From Candidatus Nomurabacteria bacterium (GTDB lineage Bacteria; Patescibacteriota; Minisyncoccia; Phycocordibacterales; UBA918): a DNA stretch of 59,852 bases. Numbering within the stretch: position 1 is the stretch's first letter; each line of letters opens with the position of its first letter. Location of the stretch: assembly GCA_020632015.1 (NCBI GenBank), contig JACKGI010000004.1, forward strand, positions 1-59,852, written 5' to 3'. This document shows, piece by piece, positions 3,398-59,265 of the stretch. Both the position numbers and the translations under genes were made by a program. Under the pieces are notes generated by a model. It was not told the origin of the DNA. It searched no databases and worked only from the letters and a program-made list of their open reading frames with translations.

Positions 3398-4183
3398 ATG
3401 TCATACATCAAAGTAACTACATACGGCGATTATGTCGAAATAAATGAATACGAACATGATCTTATACGAAACCATGACGGACGCGCAGGCCGGCGGTCGT
3501 CAGCTATTAGCAATGATAATTTGGGAACTAGCAGAGAGGATTCACTTCAGACCGGGGACAGTGAAGAAAAAGTGGGGCGCCGATCCGATAACGCGTGGCG
3601 CGCTAGCATGGCTTTCCGAAGGCTTGTTTCAGCTAACCTCGGGAGAGGATCTGCACCACCTCTACTGGCTACACTTACCTACGGGAGCAATTTCACCGAC
3701 CTTAGTGCGGCGTATAAACACTACTCAGCTTTTGCGCAATCTCTCAGACGCAAGTTCGGGCATGACTTTAAGTACCTATGCGTCCCAGAATTTCAAGAAC
3801 GTGGCGCCGTACATTTCCACGCTTTCCTCTGGGGGTTACCCGAAGAACTTTTTCTTCTGGAGAGGGAAAATCGTACCGTGGCACAAATCTGGAGCCATGG
3901 TTTTGTCGATCTCAAAAGAACAGATGGAGCAGGGGCGTTGGCTGGGTACCTAGCTAAATATCTAACCAAAGCCTATGAAGACCCGCGTCTCAAGAATCAA
4001 AAAGCATACACCGCTTCTCGCAATATCATTCGTCCTGAAGTGTTTACGGGGAACTTCAGTGCCGATCGCATTCTCTTTGAATTAGGGGTTGATTCTGAGC
4101 CTGAAGTCTCACGCGAATACAACACAAAGTGGTTTGGTCGTGCCACCTATCGCAAATACAAGATTAACCATGATGAGCCTTAA
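3398..4183 (+). CDS. rolling-circle replication initiator (HUH endonuclease, two-tyrosine type)
   Basis: Motif 1 LLATLTY, motif 2 VHFHAFLW (HUH), motif 3 YLAKYLTK (Y-x3-Y, compare phiX gpA YVAKYVNK). Confidence 0.8.
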   Translation: MSYIKVTTYGDYVEINEYEHDLIRNHDGRAGRRSSAISNDNLGTSREDSLQTGDSEEKVGRRSDNAWRASMAFRRLVSANLGRGSAPPLLATLTYGSNFTDLSAAYKHYSAFAQSLRRKFGHDFKYLCVPEFQERGAVHFHAFLWGLPEELFLLERENRTVAQIWSHGFVDLKRTDGAGALAGYLAKYLTKAYEDPRLKNQKAYTASRNIIRPEVFTGNFSADRILFELGVDSEPEVSREYNTKWFGRATYRKYKINHDEP

Positions 4184-6047: not shown

Positions 6048-6095
6048 GGACATTCATCTTCAGTCAGCATAATTTTTGGGCACAATATTATTTTT

Positions 6096-6539
6096 TTAAT
6101 TTACCATTACTCCTGTTGGTACATTATTGTGATTTTGTTTGACATTTTGTTTTGTCGATACACGATGAATTGAATTAGCGGGTATCGAAACTAATGGTGG
6201 AGGAAGGTTGTCCATCTTGTCCTTGTGTAGTTGTGCAGATTGCGGAAAGGCTAGTCCAATTTTAATCGACCCAATCTCCCTCGGCACTAGGGTCAGAGTG
6301 ACTAAACTTTGGTGTCTGAAAGCCTTTACCTCAACGTCTAAGATGCTGACTGCGGTTGGGTCGCAGATTATATTCAATTGCTTACCTTGCTCACTTGTGA
6401 GTGGTGTTTGCAAAAGAAAATTAACTGTCTCTGTTGCTCCACGATGTAGAGTAATATCGTGGAAAAAATTTAATCTCCGTACGTATGGACTTGCTAACAA
6501 GTCATCGTCGGTGATGAATAATGAGTAGAATCTAATCAT
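6096..6539 (-). CDS. hypothetical protein
   Basis: 147-aa ORF with no recognisable motif. DnaA-box-like repeats lie upstream of its start. Confidence 0.5.
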   Translation of the reverse strand: MIRFYSLFITDDDLLASPYVRRLNFFHDITLHRGATETVNFLLQTPLTSEQGKQLNIICDPTAVSILDVEVKAFRHQSLVTLTLVPREIGSIKIGLAFPQSAQLHKDKMDNLPPPLVSIPANSIHRVSTKQNVKQNHNNVPTGVMVN

Positions 6540-28719: not shown

Positions 28720-28850
28720 GTGCGCAGGAGAGGACTTGAACTCTACGAGTTCAGTACAGGTTGTCGTTATTTTGTTCACAAGCTCCAAAATAACTGGCAA
28801 CCTTTTCAAACCCTCACACAAAGTCTTCCAGACTTTGCTTCCTGAGCACA
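28720..28850 (-). repeat. tRNA-3'-end-linked hairpin module, copy 1 (downstream of tRNA-Leu-UAG)
   Basis: 28720..28741 is a perfect 22-nt copy of the tRNA 3' end (28879..28900). 28805..28815 is an inverted T-loop/T-stem copy. Long hairpin at 28759..28802. The interior is homologous to the module at 38595..38706. Confidence 0.6.
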
Positions 28851-28879
28851 CAAAAACCCACCAAAGTGGGTTTTCTTAG

Positions 28880-37386: not shown

Positions 37387-38061
37387 ATGAGCGACAAAAT
37401 CCAAACATATTCAACTATTATTCCAGAAAATATTTTTTCAGAAGTAAACGAGGATAATAAGTTTCCAGTACTCGATGAAACAGGCTTCATTGTTACCCAG
37501 AAGGAATCCGAAGACATTGATGTGCCGCAAGGACCCTGGCTTCTGCTGGTGGATGATGCTTGGCGCCGCACAAAATGGCCGATGAATGAAATGATCAGGA
37601 ACTACATTTCATTCATTTTAAGTCGTTACTCATTGCAGGTCGACTTATATGAAAAATTAGTGGCCTTCAATTACATTCAATATTTTGTACTTGGCAAAAA
37701 AATTGGCTATGACATGATGCAGGAAATTGCTGATATTTGTTTCCAGTATGTTTCCTTTGTGCCTAGGCGTAGCCTGAGTCGTAGAGAGTTTCGTTCTTTG
37801 AAATACAGTACAGAACTGGGGCAGTCTTTATATGACCAGTTAGTGGAAAACCACGAAGGAGAAAATAATTTTTTCAGCAGTGCCCATAGGGAAATGTCAG
37901 AAAACTATGACATGGCCGTCTCGATTATGCGTAAATTGGACTTACCCATGCAGGATATACAAATAAAAGTTGGTCCATTAAATATTCCTGATGATTTAGA
38001 CGGCGATAATCTAGAGCAGTTGTTTAAAATTTACACTGAGCCTTGTTCTGGAAGTTCTTAA
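37387..38061 (+). CDS. hypothetical protein
   Basis: The ATG at 37387 follows a GAGGA RBS; the ORF is open from TTG 37366. No motif recognised. Confidence 0.5.
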   Translation: MSDKIQTYSTIIPENIFSEVNEDNKFPVLDETGFIVTQKESEDIDVPQGPWLLLVDDAWRRTKWPMNEMIRNYISFILSRYSLQVDLYEKLVAFNYIQYFVLGKKIGYDMMQEIADICFQYVSFVPRRSLSRREFRSLKYSTELGQSLYDQLVENHEGENNFFSSAHREMSENYDMAVSIMRKLDLPMQDIQIKVGPLNIPDDLDGDNLEQLFKIYTEPCSGSS

Positions 38062-38249
38062 CCAAAACAATACCCGCATTCTGCGGGTATTTTTTAGTGC
38101 GCTGGAATGACTGAGTTTAGAACCAGTATCATAGTGTCAGAATACTGTTTCTTGCCAAGTTTTATAAAGATGGAGGAAGTTTTTGCACAAAAAGAAAACA
38201 GCCCCAGCATGGAAACTAGAGCGTTTCCTTTACTAGGACTGATTAGGTA

Positions 38250-38510
38250 TTACTGCTTTACAAAAACATGGAAGATCAGAGTCCCGCCATGCATTTGGTA
38301 TGTATTTAGATAGACACCGGCTTCTCTGATAGGGTGTCCTGTGCCGTATGTTTGTATGACACACGGCTTCGTCTCGGCACTTGGGTCAACGAGTGCCCAT
38401 AGATACGGTGTTTCCCCTTGTGCCTGAACCGACAGCAGTTGAGCACCATCAGGTATTTGCACGGTCTGCTCGTTAGTTACTTCAAGTGGGAACTTCCAAA
38501 TGGTTTTCAT
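38250..38510 (-). CDS. hypothetical small protein (86 aa), GC-richer than the flanks
   Basis: MKTIWKFPLEVTNEQTVQIPDGAQLL...GTGHP...HVF pattern. I recall similar small proteins in phage or mobile contexts, but this is unverified. Confidence 0.55.
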   Translation of the reverse strand: MKTIWKFPLEVTNEQTVQIPDGAQLLSVQAQGETPYLWALVDPSAETKPCVIQTYGTGHPIREAGVYLNTYQMHGGTLIFHVFVKQ

Positions 38511-38594
38511 GTGTACCTCCTCAGGTAACGTAAGTGAAAGGGCGAAAATAAACTGAGTACAACTATACTCTATAAATGAATGTTGTCAAGGTTT

Positions 38595-38706
38595 GTGCGC
38601 CGGGCAGGAATTTTGGTCATTACATGACCGGTACAGGTTGTCAGTATTTTTGTTCCTCTGTCACAAAATACTAGGCAACCTCTTCAAATCCAGTGACCAC
38701 TGTCAA
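38595..38706 (-). repeat. tRNA-3'-end-linked hairpin module, copy 2 (downstream of tRNA-Tyr)
   Basis: 38595..38609 is a 15-nt copy of the tRNA-Tyr 3' end (38746..38760). 38683..38691 is an inverted T-loop copy (TTCAAATCC). Long hairpin at 38636..38680, homologous to copy 1. Confidence 0.6.
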
Positions 38707-38746
38707 AACAAAAAACCAGACACAAGGTCTGGAATTTGTTTCGAAG

Positions 38747-38829
38747 TGCGCCGGGCAGGATTTGAACCTGCGTAGGATAAATCCGTCAGATTTACAGTCT
38801 GATGCAATTGACCACTCTGCCACCGACGC
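38747..38829 (-). tRNA. tRNA-Tyr (anticodon GUA)
   Basis: GCGTCGG acceptor, anticodon stem TCAGA/TCTGA with loop CTGTAAA, long variable arm, T-arm GCAGG-TTCAAAT-CCTGC. Confidence 0.92.
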
Positions 38830-38999
38830 GTGTATATTTAATTGTATTTTGGAGTGTTGTAATATTTACCTCGTAGGGAATATACGTGGTCAATTACATT
38901 GTCCTCCTATCGCCTCGTAAACAAAGGCGATTCTGTCGCAAGCGACAGACCAGAGAAAATATAAAGCAGTTTATATTTTCTCCACTCTGCCACCGACGC
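38830..38999 (-). repeat. tRNA-5'-end-linked module upstream of tRNA-Tyr
   Basis: 38982..38999 is an 18-nt copy of tRNA-Tyr positions 1-18 (38812..38829). 38886..38899 is an inverted D-loop copy. Three hairpins at 38909-38931, 38933-38948 and 38953-38982. Confidence 0.5.
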
Positions 39000-39167
39000 A
39001 TATGTTCTTGTGTCTACTCAAAGAGATTCAATGAGTGGGAACAAAATAACACATTCGTATCATTTTTCAAAGCTCCATTGAGCATAAGTATCCAGAATTA
39101 CGCAAAAATAGTGTTTTTATTCTAAATACTTCTGCTAAAATTAGACTATTATAAAAACTATTACTTT

Positions 39168-40217
39168 ATGAAATATCTCCATCTTTTTGTTTTTTTATTT
39201 TTAGGCCTTTTAGTTTACATTTCTCCGGTAGAGGTTTTTGCTCAAGACCCAACAGGCTTGGTGCCTTGTGACGGCACAACAGAAAATCCATGTAATTCAT
39301 GCCAGTTAGTGGTGTTGGGAGAAAATATTTTGCAGTGGCTTATTGGTGTCATGCTGGTTATTTTTGCAATAATGGTTGCAATCTCTGGCTTTAACTTAGT
39401 TACTTCTGGAGGTAATCCACAAGCAAAAACAGAAGCAAAGAAGAAGCTAACCAATTCATTCGTTGCGATTGTTATTGTCTTGGCTGCTTGGTTGATTGTG
39501 GATACTCTGATGCGTTCGCTTCTGCTTGGCGGAGAAGGGCAGATTAATGGTCGTCCTTGGTCTACTTTAGAGTGTATTAATGCTACTGAGACAACTATGC
39601 CAAACAAAAATGAATTAAGTCCCACACTACAACAAGTTGAGGATCTGAAAGCGATGGGATGTCAGTTTAAGAATGGCAGAGAGGGGTGGTATTGTCCAAA
39701 TACTTCTTGCCGATATAGGGAGACTGAGGGTTGGTACAATTGTGCAGAAGGAGAAGTTCCTCCAGCTCCTCCTGAGCCAATAGCGGCTGCTGGTTTAGAA
39801 AATGCTTGTGGCGGTGGACCGTGTGTTCCTTTGGCTACAGTAGGCGTGCCATGTAAAGATCCAAACAGTTGTGCATTGGCACCTTCAACTCAGGAGAAGG
39901 TCGCCGCTTTCCATGCAGCTGCTGGTGTATCTGGAGCCAGAGTGACCGAAGCTATGCCTCCAACTCGAACACACAGTAACCCTTGTCATACAAATGGAAC
40001 TTGTATCGATTATGGTAAGGCTGGTGGTATGACTAATCAGGAGATAAAAGATGTTATTCAAGCTGCCGTAAACGCTGGTCTGTCTCCTAAGTACGAAGTC
40101 GGTACACAAGCTGAAGTTGATGTTTTGTTAGAAGCTGGTATTCCAGCTCAATATATCGAAAAGCCTTTAGGTAGCCATATAACGGCTCCACATTTTTCTA
40201 TTTATGATAATGGTTAA
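39168..40217 (+). CDS. VirB2/TrbC-like pilin-family N-terminal domain fused to a Cys-rich C-terminal domain (possible LAS/M15-like metallopeptidase)
   Basis: Signal peptide, then PCDGTTENPCNSCQLVVL...VMLVIFAIMVAISGFNLVTSGGNPQAKTEAKKKLTNSFVAIVIVLAAWLIV. The C-terminal HTNGTCID fits H-x2-G-x3-D (H-x6-D) of VanX/M15-type zinc sites, a weak match. Confidence 0.65.
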   Translation: MKYLHLFVFLFLGLLVYISPVEVFAQDPTGLVPCDGTTENPCNSCQLVVLGENILQWLIGVMLVIFAIMVAISGFNLVTSGGNPQAKTEAKKKLTNSFVAIVIVLAAWLIVDTLMRSLLLGGEGQINGRPWSTLECINATETTMPNKNELSPTLQQVEDLKAMGCQFKNGREGWYCPNTSCRYRETEGWYNCAEGEVPPAPPEPIAAAGLENACGGGPCVPLATVGVPCKDPNSCALAPSTQEKVAAFHAAAGVSGARVTEAMPPTRTHSNPCHTNGTCIDYGKAGGMTNQEIKDVIQAAVNAGLSPKYEVGTQAEVDVLLEAGIPAQYIEKPLGSHITAPHFSIYDNG

Positions 40218-40259
40218 ATAAACAAAGACTGGCGGTATGCCAGTCTTTGTTTATTTATG

Positions 40260-40330
40260 CGGGTCCACGAGGACTCGAACCTCGGCCGACGGTTTTGGAG
40301 ACCGTTGTTCTACCACTAAACTATAGACCC
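40260..40330 (-). tRNA. tRNA-Trp (anticodon CCA)
   Basis: GGGTCTA acceptor, anticodon stem ACGGT/ACCGT with loop CTCCAAA, T-arm CGAGG-TTCGAGT-CCTCG. Confidence 0.92.
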
Positions 40331-40375
40331 GTATGTTTGCTGTGGCAGTTATAGTATGGGAAAGACCGAGCTAGG

Positions 40376-41281
40376 TCAACTGTTTTCATTGTGTAGAAAT
40401 TCTTCAATTCTTTTGAAGATAGCTTCGGTGTTTGTGGGTTCAAACCATTCTATCTCCTCGTCTCTTTTTAGCCATGTCATCTGACGCTTTGCATACTGAC
40501 GGATTTTAATCTCAAGTTTCTTCAGCATCTCATCGTAAGTGAGTTCTTGTTGAAGATACATCGCTATATATCGGTACTCAAGTCCGAGATCATGCATGCG
40601 TTCATAGCTTAGGCCATTTTTGTGTAGTTCGCATACCTCATCTACCATGCCGGCTTTAAATCTCTCCAGTAGTCGCTTGTGGATGTTTTGATGAAGTCTT
40701 AGTTTGGTTATGTTTACTCCGATTATCAACCAGTCATATGCAGATTCGCGACTGGTAAGTAAAGGTACATGACCTAGTGAGTCGATTATTTCTAGGGCTC
40801 TTACTAAGCGTGGACGATTATTAGGGTCAATTGTTTCTGCTCTCTTAGGGTCGGCTTCCTTAAGTTTTTCAAATAGTTCAGGAGTAGAAAATCCCATTAG
40901 ACTTAATCGAAAGTCTTGATCTGGCGGAACAGAAGCGACCTGTTGCCTACCTCTTAGCATGTCCAAGTAGAAAAAGGTTCCGCCAGCAATGATTGGTAGT
41001 CTTCCACGACACTGAATATCAAGTAAGGCTGCTGATGCGTCTAGTTCGAATTCAGCAGCATTGTAACTTGTGGTCGGATCGGCAATGTCTAGTAAGTGGT
41101 GTGGAACTCCATCCATTTCATCGCTGGTTACTTTTCCTGTCCCTAAGTCCAAACCCTTGTAGACTTGTCTAGAGTCAGCAGAAATAACTTCACCATCAAA
41201 TTTTTTGGCGATTTCTATGGACAGGGAGGTCTTGCCTGACGAGGTGGGACCAACCACTGCTATTGCCTTTGGTTTGGTCAT
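40376..41281 (-). CDS. miaA: tRNA dimethylallyltransferase
   Basis: P-loop VVGPTSSGKTS, ISADSRQVYKGLDLGT, 301 aa. Confidence 0.92.
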   Translation of the reverse strand: MTKPKAIAVVGPTSSGKTSLSIEIAKKFDGEVISADSRQVYKGLDLGTGKVTSDEMDGVPHHLLDIADPTTSYNAAEFELDASAALLDIQCRGRLPIIAGGTFFYLDMLRGRQQVASVPPDQDFRLSLMGFSTPELFEKLKEADPKRAETIDPNNRPRLVRALEIIDSLGHVPLLTSRESAYDWLIIGVNITKLRLHQNIHKRLLERFKAGMVDEVCELHKNGLSYERMHDLGLEYRYIAMYLQQELTYDEMLKKLEIKIRQYAKRQMTWLKRDEEIEWFEPTNTEAIFKRIEEFLHNENS

Positions 41282-42016: not shown

Positions 42017-42120
42017 GGTGCCTCGAGAGGGAGTCGAAACTTACAGTTTCAGTACCCGTTTTGGATGGATTACTTCGTTCCTTATAATCCATCTCAAAAC
42101 AGCTTCGACTCCCTCAACCA
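42017..42120 (-). repeat. tRNA-3'-end-linked hairpin module, copy 3 (downstream of tRNA-Leu-CAA)
   Basis: 42017..42038 is a perfect 22-nt copy of the tRNA 3' end (42158..42179). 42104..42115 is a perfect 12-nt inverted copy of the T-loop/T-stem. Long hairpin at 42058..42100. Confidence 0.6.
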
Positions 42121-42159
42121 AAACAAAAACCAGACGCAAGGTCTGATTTCTTATTTCGG

Positions 42160-59062: not shown

Positions 59063-59117
59063 CATAATTTAGTTTGACCCCAATGCGCATGCATTGGGGT
59101 CTTACTAAATTACCTGA

Positions 59118-59265
59118 CTACAGGGACTCGAACCGAGACGGCGCGAAGCCCGACGAAATGAAATGGAGTCGGAGCCGTCGAGTGGGGGTCGAGGGAGTGA
59201 GATATTTTGAGTTCAAAGAACGAAAAAAATATCCACGAGAGTGACCGATTCCCTGTCCGGCAGCA
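59118..59265 (+). repeat. tRNA-3'-end-linked hairpin module, copy 4 (downstream of tRNA-Gln)
   Basis: 59120..59134 is a perfect 15-nt inverted copy of the tRNA T-arm (59041..59055). Hairpin at 59137..59179. 59250..59265 is a 16-nt direct copy of the tRNA 3' end (59049..59064). Confidence 0.55.

Follow-up and report, generated by a model that had tools for sequence, protein, structure and literature searches.

Our analysis shows that positions 38830-38999 of the window (the whole stretch of 59,852 nucleotides analysed here) represent a single copy of a non-coding repeat unit of ~170 bp that is conserved and lies between the probable tRNA-Tyr promoter and the tRNA-Tyr gene. Partial tRNA copies beside tRNA genes are normally read as the 3'-end scars of integrases, but here it is the 5' end of the tRNA that is duplicated, at a fixed junction in the D-loop, with a conserved and covarying core and no linked enzyme gene. 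We are confident of the anatomy of the unit, of the family to which it belongs and of its placement. A structured repeat unit that sits on the 5' side of the gene, is joined at the D-loop and, as far as screened, is specific to tRNA-Tyr is real, and no description of such units was found in the literature searched.

Anatomy of the unit at the tRNA-Tyr gene

The tRNA-Tyr(GTA) gene is called by ARAGORN and by the Rfam tRNA model (62.4 bits) at 38746-38829 on the minus strand, and the genes around it are those for ClpB, three small unknowns (one of them DUF7352), a T4SS-pilin-like protein, tRNA-Trp, MiaA and AhpC. The pilin family and the related loci assign the genome to Patescibacteria (Paceibacteria), and the organism was found in activated-sludge and wastewater metagenomes. 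The features of the locus are as follows, with the evidence for each in brackets.

38595-38745, minus strand: 3' module behind tRNA-Tyr (terminator at 38716-38732, inverted T-loop copy, P1-P2-GTAC-P3 core, end copy)
38746-38829, minus strand: intact tRNA-Tyr(GTA), with the second repeat copy in its nt 1-18 (38812-38829) (ARAGORN and Rfam)
38830-38871, minus strand: AT-rich tail with CTCC..AAAATACAAT (compared with leaders of relatives)
38872-38886, minus strand: short hairpin hp4, CGTA-tattccc-TACG (folds)
38886-38899, minus strand: inverted D-arm copy, read in the tRNA sense as ATGTAATTGACCAC (1 mismatch in its complementarity to nt 15-28)
38902-38908, minus strand: AGGAGGA, a conserved unpaired purine motif (found in 15/15 units, as AAGAGGA in one)
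38909-38931, minus strand: hairpin hp3, ATCGCCT-ttgtttacg-AGGCGAT (folds; outer-stem pair variation)
38932-38949, minus strand: hairpin hp2, TCTGTCG-cttg-CGACAGA (folds; outer-stem covariation)
38947-38953, minus strand: conserved CTGGTCT (pairs with displaced tRNA nt 12-18, AGAGTGG, lengthening hp1)
38954-38981, minus strand: 12-bp hairpin hp1, AGAAAATATAAA-ctgc-TTTATATTTTCT (99.6% of cells paired; covariation)
38982-38999, minus strand: displaced direct copy of tRNA-Tyr nt 1-18, GCGTCGGTGGCAGAGTGG, the start of the unit (exact 18-nt repeat)
39000-39042, minus strand: native leader, from the promoter to the displaced 5' copy, with a hairpin ACTCA..TGAGT at 39016-39036 (sequence)
39043-39070, minus strand: promoter-like site TTGAAA-16-TATTTT with TG ahead of the -10 (consensus scan)

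An earlier note on this DNA had described a displaced copy of the tRNA 5' end, an inverted copy of the D-loop region and three hairpins between the two repeat copies, and all of these were borne out. The plus-strand 18-mer CCACTCTGCCACCGACGC at 38812-38829 occurs again, exactly, at 38982-38999, which places the displaced copy of tRNA-Tyr nt 1-18 at 170 bp upstream of the gene in the tRNA sense; GTGGTCAATTACAT (38886-38899) is an inverted copy of 38802-38815 (D-arm/D-loop) at 13/14 bases; and the hairpins at 38909-38931, 38932-38949 and 38953-38982, the last a 13-bp stem reaching into the repeat, are present both in the sequence and in the folds. The interior between the two 18-nt copies is 152 bp long and non-coding, no conserved ORF follows AGGAGGA, and no frame is open across the members of the family, the lengths of which are 158-188 nt. 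CTGGTCT has its final three bases in common with hp2, and the 5' arm of hp2 has an alternative predicted pairing with displaced tRNA nt 2-11. Pairing is predicted between the inverted D-arm copy and the D-arm of the tRNA that follows, and the AT-rich tail is similar to the leader that precedes the tRNA in relatives free of the unit. The short hairpin hp4 could derive by decay from an inverted copy of the 5' strand of the acceptor; at the equivalent position of L107, L121, L145 and L219 (the L numbers designate the loci compared) the leader plus nt 1-11 are more clearly recognizable as an inverted copy. Two further candidate features were discarded: a hairpin GGACAAT-gta-ATTGACC, taken as a counterpart of the P3 hairpin of the 3' modules, has an unconserved loop and zero compensatory changes, and an internal promoter built on the TTGACC of the inverted D-arm motif has no acceptable -10 by consensus scan and inspection.

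The promoter-like site sits in a conserved block, CTTTGAAAAA..TGTGTTATTTTGTTCCCACTC, found in the window, L150, L184, L139 and L121, which probably represents the native promoter of tRNA-Tyr. L150 and L184 have no unit: only a short leader separates the block from the tRNA, an arrangement that we refer to as the empty site; L150 is syntenic with the window from tRNA-Leu through ClpB. In the window, L139 and L121 one or more units stand between the block with its leader hairpin and the tRNA, and a hairpin equivalent to that of the window leader is found in L150, L139 and L121. Because the promoter-like block lies upstream and a scan of the window unit found no terminator-like site inside it, the unit is probably transcribed in the leader of pre-tRNA-Tyr. 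The RNA runs gave conserved tRNA pieces of other organisms and one contig of depth 2 from a relative; this contig spans the displaced copy and hp1 and may stem from DNA carried over into the RNA library.

An assembly artefact is excluded, since the structure is covered in full, at 99.7-100% identity, by independent Logan contigs of other sequencing runs. Units of this kind produce false or fragmentary tRNA calls and contig breaks in metagenome assemblies of CPR bacteria. Within the 60-kb window there is only one copy of the unit, and, set against a MITE with its terminal inverted repeats and many dispersed copies, its direct and inverted tRNA-end copies may act like inverted ends. A cmscan of 37500-40500 with E values up to 1 found no known Rfam family in the unit, and an intron in the tRNA (group I or other) was dismissed, as an intact tRNA follows the unit and a match to an Rfam intron is absent.

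A family of folded units in related genomes

The earlier note had proposed a comparison with the tRNA-Tyr locus of related genomes, and this comparison brought to light units in relatives as well as the empty site of L150 and L184. A genome-collection scan with a tRNA-Tyr D-arm-to-anticodon pattern gave 120 loci, mostly from CPR bacteria, among which L107, L111, L127 (two), L129, L139 (two) and L145 have copies of nt 1-18, exact over 15-18 nt, at a distance of 170-195 bp upstream of tRNA-Tyr, and a diverged upstream copy of the tRNA 5' end is present in L121/L149. A metagenome scan added 9 true matches, all adjoining tRNA-Tyr, with a unit-specific pattern that is biased towards tRNA-Tyr. Removal of duplicates left 15 distinct units with the same order of parts, which in the tRNA sense is the copy of nt 1-18, hp1, CTGGTCT, hp2, hp3, AGGAGGA, the inverted D-arm copy, a short hairpin and the AT-rich tail, followed by the next unit or by the tRNA. 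Relatives carry 0, 1, 2 or 3 units per locus, in tandem and with an array period of ~170-188 bp; there are two units in L215 and L220 and three in L218.

The upstream copy is mostly 18 nt long and has diverged by 1-4 bases in L111, L121, L219 and L221. It tracks the D-stem variants of the host tRNA in L216, L219 and L221, whereas the inverted D-arm motif, kept as CAATnnAATTGACCAC in 13/15 units, does not. In four loci (L107, L121, L145 and L219) the inverted copy after AGGAGGA is more extended, spanning the leader and most of nt 1-28 with the D-stem stretch replaced, and a long helix is predicted between this copy and the 5' end of the actual tRNA; in the window the D-arm part alone is clear. 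The units fall into two subtypes, distinguished by hp2 and hp3. Subtype A comprises the window unit, L121, the distal units of L139 and L215, and L225, while the hairpins of subtype B have conserved GA/GA internal loops. Arrays of mixed subtype occur in L139, L215 and L218, and the two units of L215 have identical hp1 and tail sequences and differ in hp2 and hp3.

When the 170-nt unit was folded and compared with shuffled sequences, the z-score was -6.96 for the sense RNA and -4.86 for plus-strand DNA, and 0/200 shuffles folded as well. These z-scores, together with the same build in 15 distinct units, place the unit beyond chance. The helix formed by hp1 and by the pairing of CTGGTCT with displaced nt 12-18 was tested on 13 distinct sequences: 99.6% of cells are paired (40-52% in slid controls), compensatory changes are found at 7 pairs, and the covariation score of 0.375, against 0.178 in shuffles, was reached by 0/500 shuffles. 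Mutations in the displaced copy of L111 and L121 have brought it closer to Watson-Crick complementarity with CTGGTCT. The outer stem of hp2 is Watson-Crick in 74/75 pairs with covariation at 2 positions, and that of hp3 in 88/90 pairs with more than one pair type at 4/6 positions. The unit structure is kept across genomes of ~80-86% ClpB identity, and the folded shape is under selection.

Overall, 340/345 pairs of hp1-hp3 are Watson-Crick and 2 are G.T. Stems of such near-pure Watson-Crick pairing are unusual for RNA and look more like DNA palindromes, and on this pattern of covariation it may be mistaken to picture the unit as a passive leader RNA. Behind hp1 lies a stretch (CTGGTCTGTCGCTTGCG in the window) that repeats the entire 18-nt segment in inverted and degenerate form; its pairing with the displaced segment contains 6 G.U and 0 A.C pairs, is specific to the sense strand and is predicted to compete with hp2. 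We do not take the excess of G.U over A.C as proof of an RNA function, for it is largely explained by the G-rich tRNA strand (our estimate is P ~0.12).

ClpB is a conserved neighbour of tRNA-Tyr and could be used to place the loci on a tree, in which the window, L150, L145, L121, L218 and L107 form one clade with 100/100 support. Units are present in all members of this clade but L150, which is sister to the window locus (99/96), and the nine loci outside the clade are all without units, including L141, whose tRNA-Tyr is identical to that of the window. The unit-bearing loci L111, L127, L216, L219 and L221 are without ClpB and hence not on the tree, and through such loci the unit may have spread horizontally beyond the clade. 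Every unit-bearing locus that can be placed by ClpB is thus in one clade, a distribution that fits one old gain with later loss or duplication through the 18-nt repeats and that does not call for repeated fresh insertions. The empty site of L150 would most simply be a loss, and recombination between the 18-nt repeats is the simplest history for the duplications in L139, L215 and L218. The sister loci L145 and L121 carry different subtypes; this split, the mixed arrays, the hp1 and tail shared by the units of L215 and an upstream copy that follows the host tRNA fit an ancestral mixed array with differential loss and concerted evolution. Vertical inheritance with copy number driven by recombination is the best-supported history of the unit.

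Relation to the 3' modules and to known systems

The tRNA-Tyr gene is also flanked on its 3' side, as the earlier note had recognized in describing it as bracketed by units made of a direct end copy, an inverted loop copy and hairpins. The tRNA 3' end recurs there over 15 nt without a mismatch (38595-38609, 151 bp downstream), along with an inverted T-loop copy, and the bracketing on both sides is correct. Modules of this 3' type are found at 4/9 tRNA genes of the window (Leu-TAG, Tyr, Leu-CAA and Gln), each with a terminator, an inverted T-arm copy, a P1-P2-GTAC-P3 core and a direct copy that runs from the T-loop to the 3' end; the 5' module is found in the window at tRNA-Tyr only. The 3' modules and the 5' unit are alike in that two copies of the host tRNA end, one direct and one inverted, surround a folded non-coding core (100-200 nt in the 3' modules) that adjoins an intact tRNA, and the 3' modules are likewise arrayed and occur in the same genomes as the 5' unit. 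However, the 5' unit is joined in the D-loop after GG on the 5' side, and the 3' modules on the 3' side, where the T-loop begins; the core of the former is made of hp1, CTGGTCT, hp2, hp3 and AGGAGGA, and that of the latter is P1-P2-GTAC-P3 with a GTA loop; the 5' unit has a leader-like tail where the 3' modules have a terminator; and the 5' unit was seen at tRNA-Tyr only and, where placeable, in one clade, whereas the 3' modules are found at several tRNA species.

The name of mirror-image module that had been given to the 5' side therefore holds for its topology, which does mirror that of the 3' module, but not for its identity, since the 5' unit is a different element with its own core, a join in the D-loop instead of the T-loop and an occurrence seen only at tRNA-Tyr. 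With core and junction both different, we rejected the 5' unit as a member of the 3'-module family. Neither the window unit nor any of the 15 units of the family has the P1-P2-GTAC-P3 core, which on the 5' side was seen only in the distal unit of L127, where it stands behind a 17-nt 5' copy. That unit nevertheless links the two kinds of module and hints at independent insertions at the same D-loop junction.

The closest likeness in a model organism is the tyrT-tyrV locus of E. coli K-12, which contains 3.1 repeats of 178 bp, each beginning with the last 19 nt of tRNA-Tyr and holding an inverted T-stem/acceptor copy (GGGGAAGGAT), a partial direct T-loop copy and hairpins. The tyrT repeats are co-transcribed with the tRNA and yield the rtT (RttR) RNA (10.1101/2024.07.17.603846). 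Both systems involve tRNA-Tyr, units of ~170-178 bp in arrays of up to ~3, a terminal tRNA segment of 18-19 nt and a build of direct plus inverted copies. In E. coli, though, the repeats lie on the 3' side, copy the 3' end including CCA and hold a small ORF (tpr), whereas the 5' unit lies on the 5' side, copies nt 1-18 with a join in the D-loop and is without an ORF; homology to rtT in sequence or structure gave no match (Rfam cmscan, E up to 1, 37500-40500). The build held in common with the tyrT repeats offers a testable link to an unexplained feature of a model organism.

Another set of systems worth comparing are integron attC sites, the attP site of the CTX phage and the ends of IS200/IS605 elements, which are short imperfect palindromes that can stack next to a fixed site without an enzyme of their own. 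Folded sites of the attC type resemble the unit in their Watson-Crick-covarying palindromes, a likeness that serves as a lead only. We know of no 18-nt target duplication in attC-type systems, and no integron integrase, Xer-type site or TnpA was identified with the unit.

It is possible, as a tentative idea about which we have more doubt than conviction, that the 5' unit and the 3' modules are two faces of one undescribed system acting on the interacting loops of the tRNA, after G18G19 in the D-loop and before T54 in the T-loop. In such a system small, enzyme-less, folded cassettes would base-pair with the loop and copy the tRNA end in direct and inverted orientation while leaving the tRNA intact, and the 178-bp tyrT repeats of E. 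coli would be an old and overlooked relative.

Origin and possible function of the unit

On a modest balance of probability, we regard the unit as a vertically inherited non-coding element that a single clade of Paceibacteria (Patescibacteria/CPR) carries between its tRNA-Tyr promoter and gene. The founding event would have taken place once, in the ancestor of the clade, when the tRNA 5' end was copied at the D-loop in direct and inverted orientation, in a mirror of the process that makes the T-loop/3' modules, and inheritance would have been mainly vertical thereafter. Recombination between the 18-nt repeats would alter the number of units and, at the same time, keep the upstream copy identical to the host tRNA. 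The unit would probably be transcribed within a pre-tRNA-Tyr leader of ~200 nt and be removed by the RNase P cut at the tRNA 5' end, and its folded shape could act at the RNA level, in a leader element or a small RNA released by processing, or else as a recombination site in single-stranded DNA.

Two other readings draw on much of the same evidence and in our judgement each of them is unlikely. The unit could be an active insertion cassette without an enzyme of its own, which moves as folded single-stranded DNA or as RNA and finds the D-loop of tRNA-Tyr by pairing its CTGGTCT to nt 12-18 and its ATTGACCAC to nt 15-23, to be inserted after GG by a host or trans-acting recombinase or nuclease; the cassette would supply a replacement leader and 5' end, leaving the tRNA intact, as the 5' counterpart of the T-loop modules. 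Both complementary segments do span the junction, the covariation of the stems is nearly all Watson-Crick as in DNA hairpin sites, and arrays of mixed subtype, the unit with a 3'-family core at the same junction (the distal unit of L127), the analogous 3' modules at 4/9 tRNA genes of the window and the empty site in the sister genome (L150) are all in keeping with mobility. However, all carriers that can be placed belong to one clade, where the empty site is most simply a loss, and the unit was found at tRNA-Tyr alone among the 304 tRNAs of the examined loci and the 9 metagenome matches. No copy with cargo or an enzyme gene was seen, no distant 5' copies bracket a large element within the loci, and viral contigs held no unit: the 18-mer scan gave complete phage tRNA genes only, the guide-agnostic unit pattern gave only look-alikes made of a terminator plus an RBS, and the 74 matches to a 15-mer of the tRNA 3' end are regarded as unspecific for such a short word. 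The failure of the inverted D-arm motif to track the D-loop variants of the host and the absence of the empty-site joint from contigs of four metagenome DNA runs also speak against the cassette. If the unit were a DNA cassette after all, it would point, with the 3' modules, to an unknown route of DNA insertion at tRNA genes. Alternatively, the unit could be a host-functional RNA of the tRNA-Tyr operon, either a cis-acting leader in which a decoy 5' end and two anti-5' segments steer, through alternative helices, how pre-tRNA-Tyr folds or is processed, or a stable small RNA released from the precursor, comparable to rtT. Its position downstream of the conserved promoter-like block with no internal terminator-like site, the retention of its structure across ~80-86% ClpB identity, the conserved and unpaired AGGAGGA, the GA/GA internal loops of the subtype B hairpins and the precedent of the E. 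coli tyrT repeats all agree with an RNA role. So do two predicted pairings that are mutually exclusive with others, that of displaced nt 2-18 with the post-hp1 stretch (6 G.U, 0 A.C) against hp2, and that of the inverted D-arm copy with the real tRNA. But the sister genome L150 does without the unit, there are nearly no G.U pairs in the hairpin stems and the G.U excess is in part what a G-rich tRNA strand would give (P ~0.12, as estimated above). To our knowledge almost no regulatory RNA is known from CPR bacteria, and a leader RNA of this type would be a new kind of structured element in their tRNA operons.

Two more conventional origins have far less in their favour than the vertically inherited unit. 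The known elements that duplicate part of a tRNA reportedly (Williams 2002) duplicate its 3' part. Genes for tRNAs are common integration sites, and integrase-mediated integration leaves a duplicated tRNA end around non-tRNA DNA with one intact tRNA kept (PMC9897764). A direct repeat of a tRNA end that flanks foreign DNA, with an empty site in a relative, is what scars of the attL/attR type from a decayed tyrosine-integrase element at tRNA-Tyr would look like. However, the partial tRNAs of integrase attR sites hold the 3' part and come with kilobases of DNA and an integrase, while the repeat here is the tRNA 5' end (nt 1-18), the unit is 170 bp long, its 152-bp interior is conserved and structured, with covarying hairpins, and no enzyme gene is linked to it, an integrase or its remnant being found in 0/15 units; the regular array period of ~170-188 bp is equally foreign to such a scar, and we consider this origin very improbable. 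The earlier note had already found a single 3'-end integration hard to reconcile with the locus, and indeed such an event cannot account for the 5' unit. That the unit is a decayed tandem duplicate of tRNA-Tyr is scarcely credible. Partial tandem copies of tRNA-Tyr do exist in other genomes (L133, L140 and L183), but these true partial copies look different, and in the window and the other units with an intact upstream copy the direct similarity to the tRNA stops at nt 17-18, just after the conserved GG of the D-loop, with no gradient across the whole tRNA of the kind the earlier note had set against its own reading. The next element is a conserved hairpin core unrelated to the tRNA body.

Apart from the unit, the screen of 304 tRNAs brought up other copies of tRNA 5' ends. 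Pseudo-tRNAs split in the D-loop by different inserts were found for tRNA-Trp in L111 and tRNA-Cys in L197, and 5' copies of 13-14 nt followed by GC-rich double hairpins occur in L103 and L112, and also in L124.

3' modules of the window and the tyrT repeats of E. coli

The 3' modules, a family of elements separate from the 5' unit and joined to tRNAs at the T-loop, are represented in the window by four copies.

28720-28878, 3' module behind tRNA-Leu(TAG)
38595-38745, 3' module behind tRNA-Tyr
42017-42157, 3' module behind tRNA-Leu(CAA)
59064-59265, 3' module behind tRNA-Gln

All four combine a terminator and an inverted copy of the T-arm with a directly repeated tRNA 3' end. The modules behind tRNA-Leu(TAG), tRNA-Tyr and tRNA-Leu(CAA) clearly show GTAC and, after it, a hairpin of 6-7 bp whose loop is GTA; the interior of the tRNA-Gln module is different. 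The 178-bp repeat units of tyrT in E. coli K-12 (NC_000913.3, 1285500-1288500) are built in the same way as the CPR 3' modules. Besides the known 19-nt tRNA 3' end, each of these units contains the T-stem/acceptor in inverted orientation, GGGGAAGGAT, and part of the T-loop in direct orientation, AAGGTTCGACT.

Partial tRNA copies upstream of tRNAs

A core of the 3'-family type, CCTTG..CAAGG-t-GTAC-ag-CGTCTgtaAGACG, was also observed on the 5' side of a tRNA-Tyr, in the distal unit of comparison locus L127, which lies from ~346 to 177 nt upstream of the tRNA (start at 3444) and has a 17-nt tRNA 5'-end copy as its boundary. A pseudo-tRNA-Trp (6071-6219) is located 149 nt upstream of an intact tRNA-Trp in locus L111. 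Its nt 1-18 are separated, after the GG of the D-loop, by a hairpin insert of 80 nt from the tRNA body, which resumes on the 3' side of the D-arm, continues to the T-stem and is truncated at the T-loop. Copies of the tRNA 5' end of 13-14 nt, followed by hairpins, were found upstream of tRNAs in L103 (Tyr), L112 (Thr) and L124 (Ala); L103 and L112 have GC-rich double hairpins, CCACCGC..GCGGGG and CCCCGC..GCGGGG, and the GC-rich hairpins of L124 differ from these. The hairpin inserts of these three loci appear to form another family, one by which tRNA copies are split in the D-loop. In L129, a 37-nt copy of tRNA-Tyr with 1 mismatch, 195 nt upstream of the tRNA, reaches the anticodon (GACTGTA) and is followed by an unrelated structured insert of ~150 nt, with the junction in the anticodon loop.

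Leader hairpin and the ATG after AGGAGGA

The conserved promoter block (..GTTCCCACTC) upstream of tRNA-Tyr is immediately followed by a leader hairpin in the window (39000-39042) and in the matching stretches of its unit-free sister genome (L150), L139 and L121; the position of the hairpin is constant, and its sequence differs in each of the four. Within the 5' unit of the window, AGGAGGA is followed on the minus strand (38902-38896) by ACA-ATG-TAA, in which the start codon abuts a stop. The matching ATG begins frames of 31 codons in L121 and 22 codons in L139, and other units lack an ATG. This ATG probably does not mark a gene.
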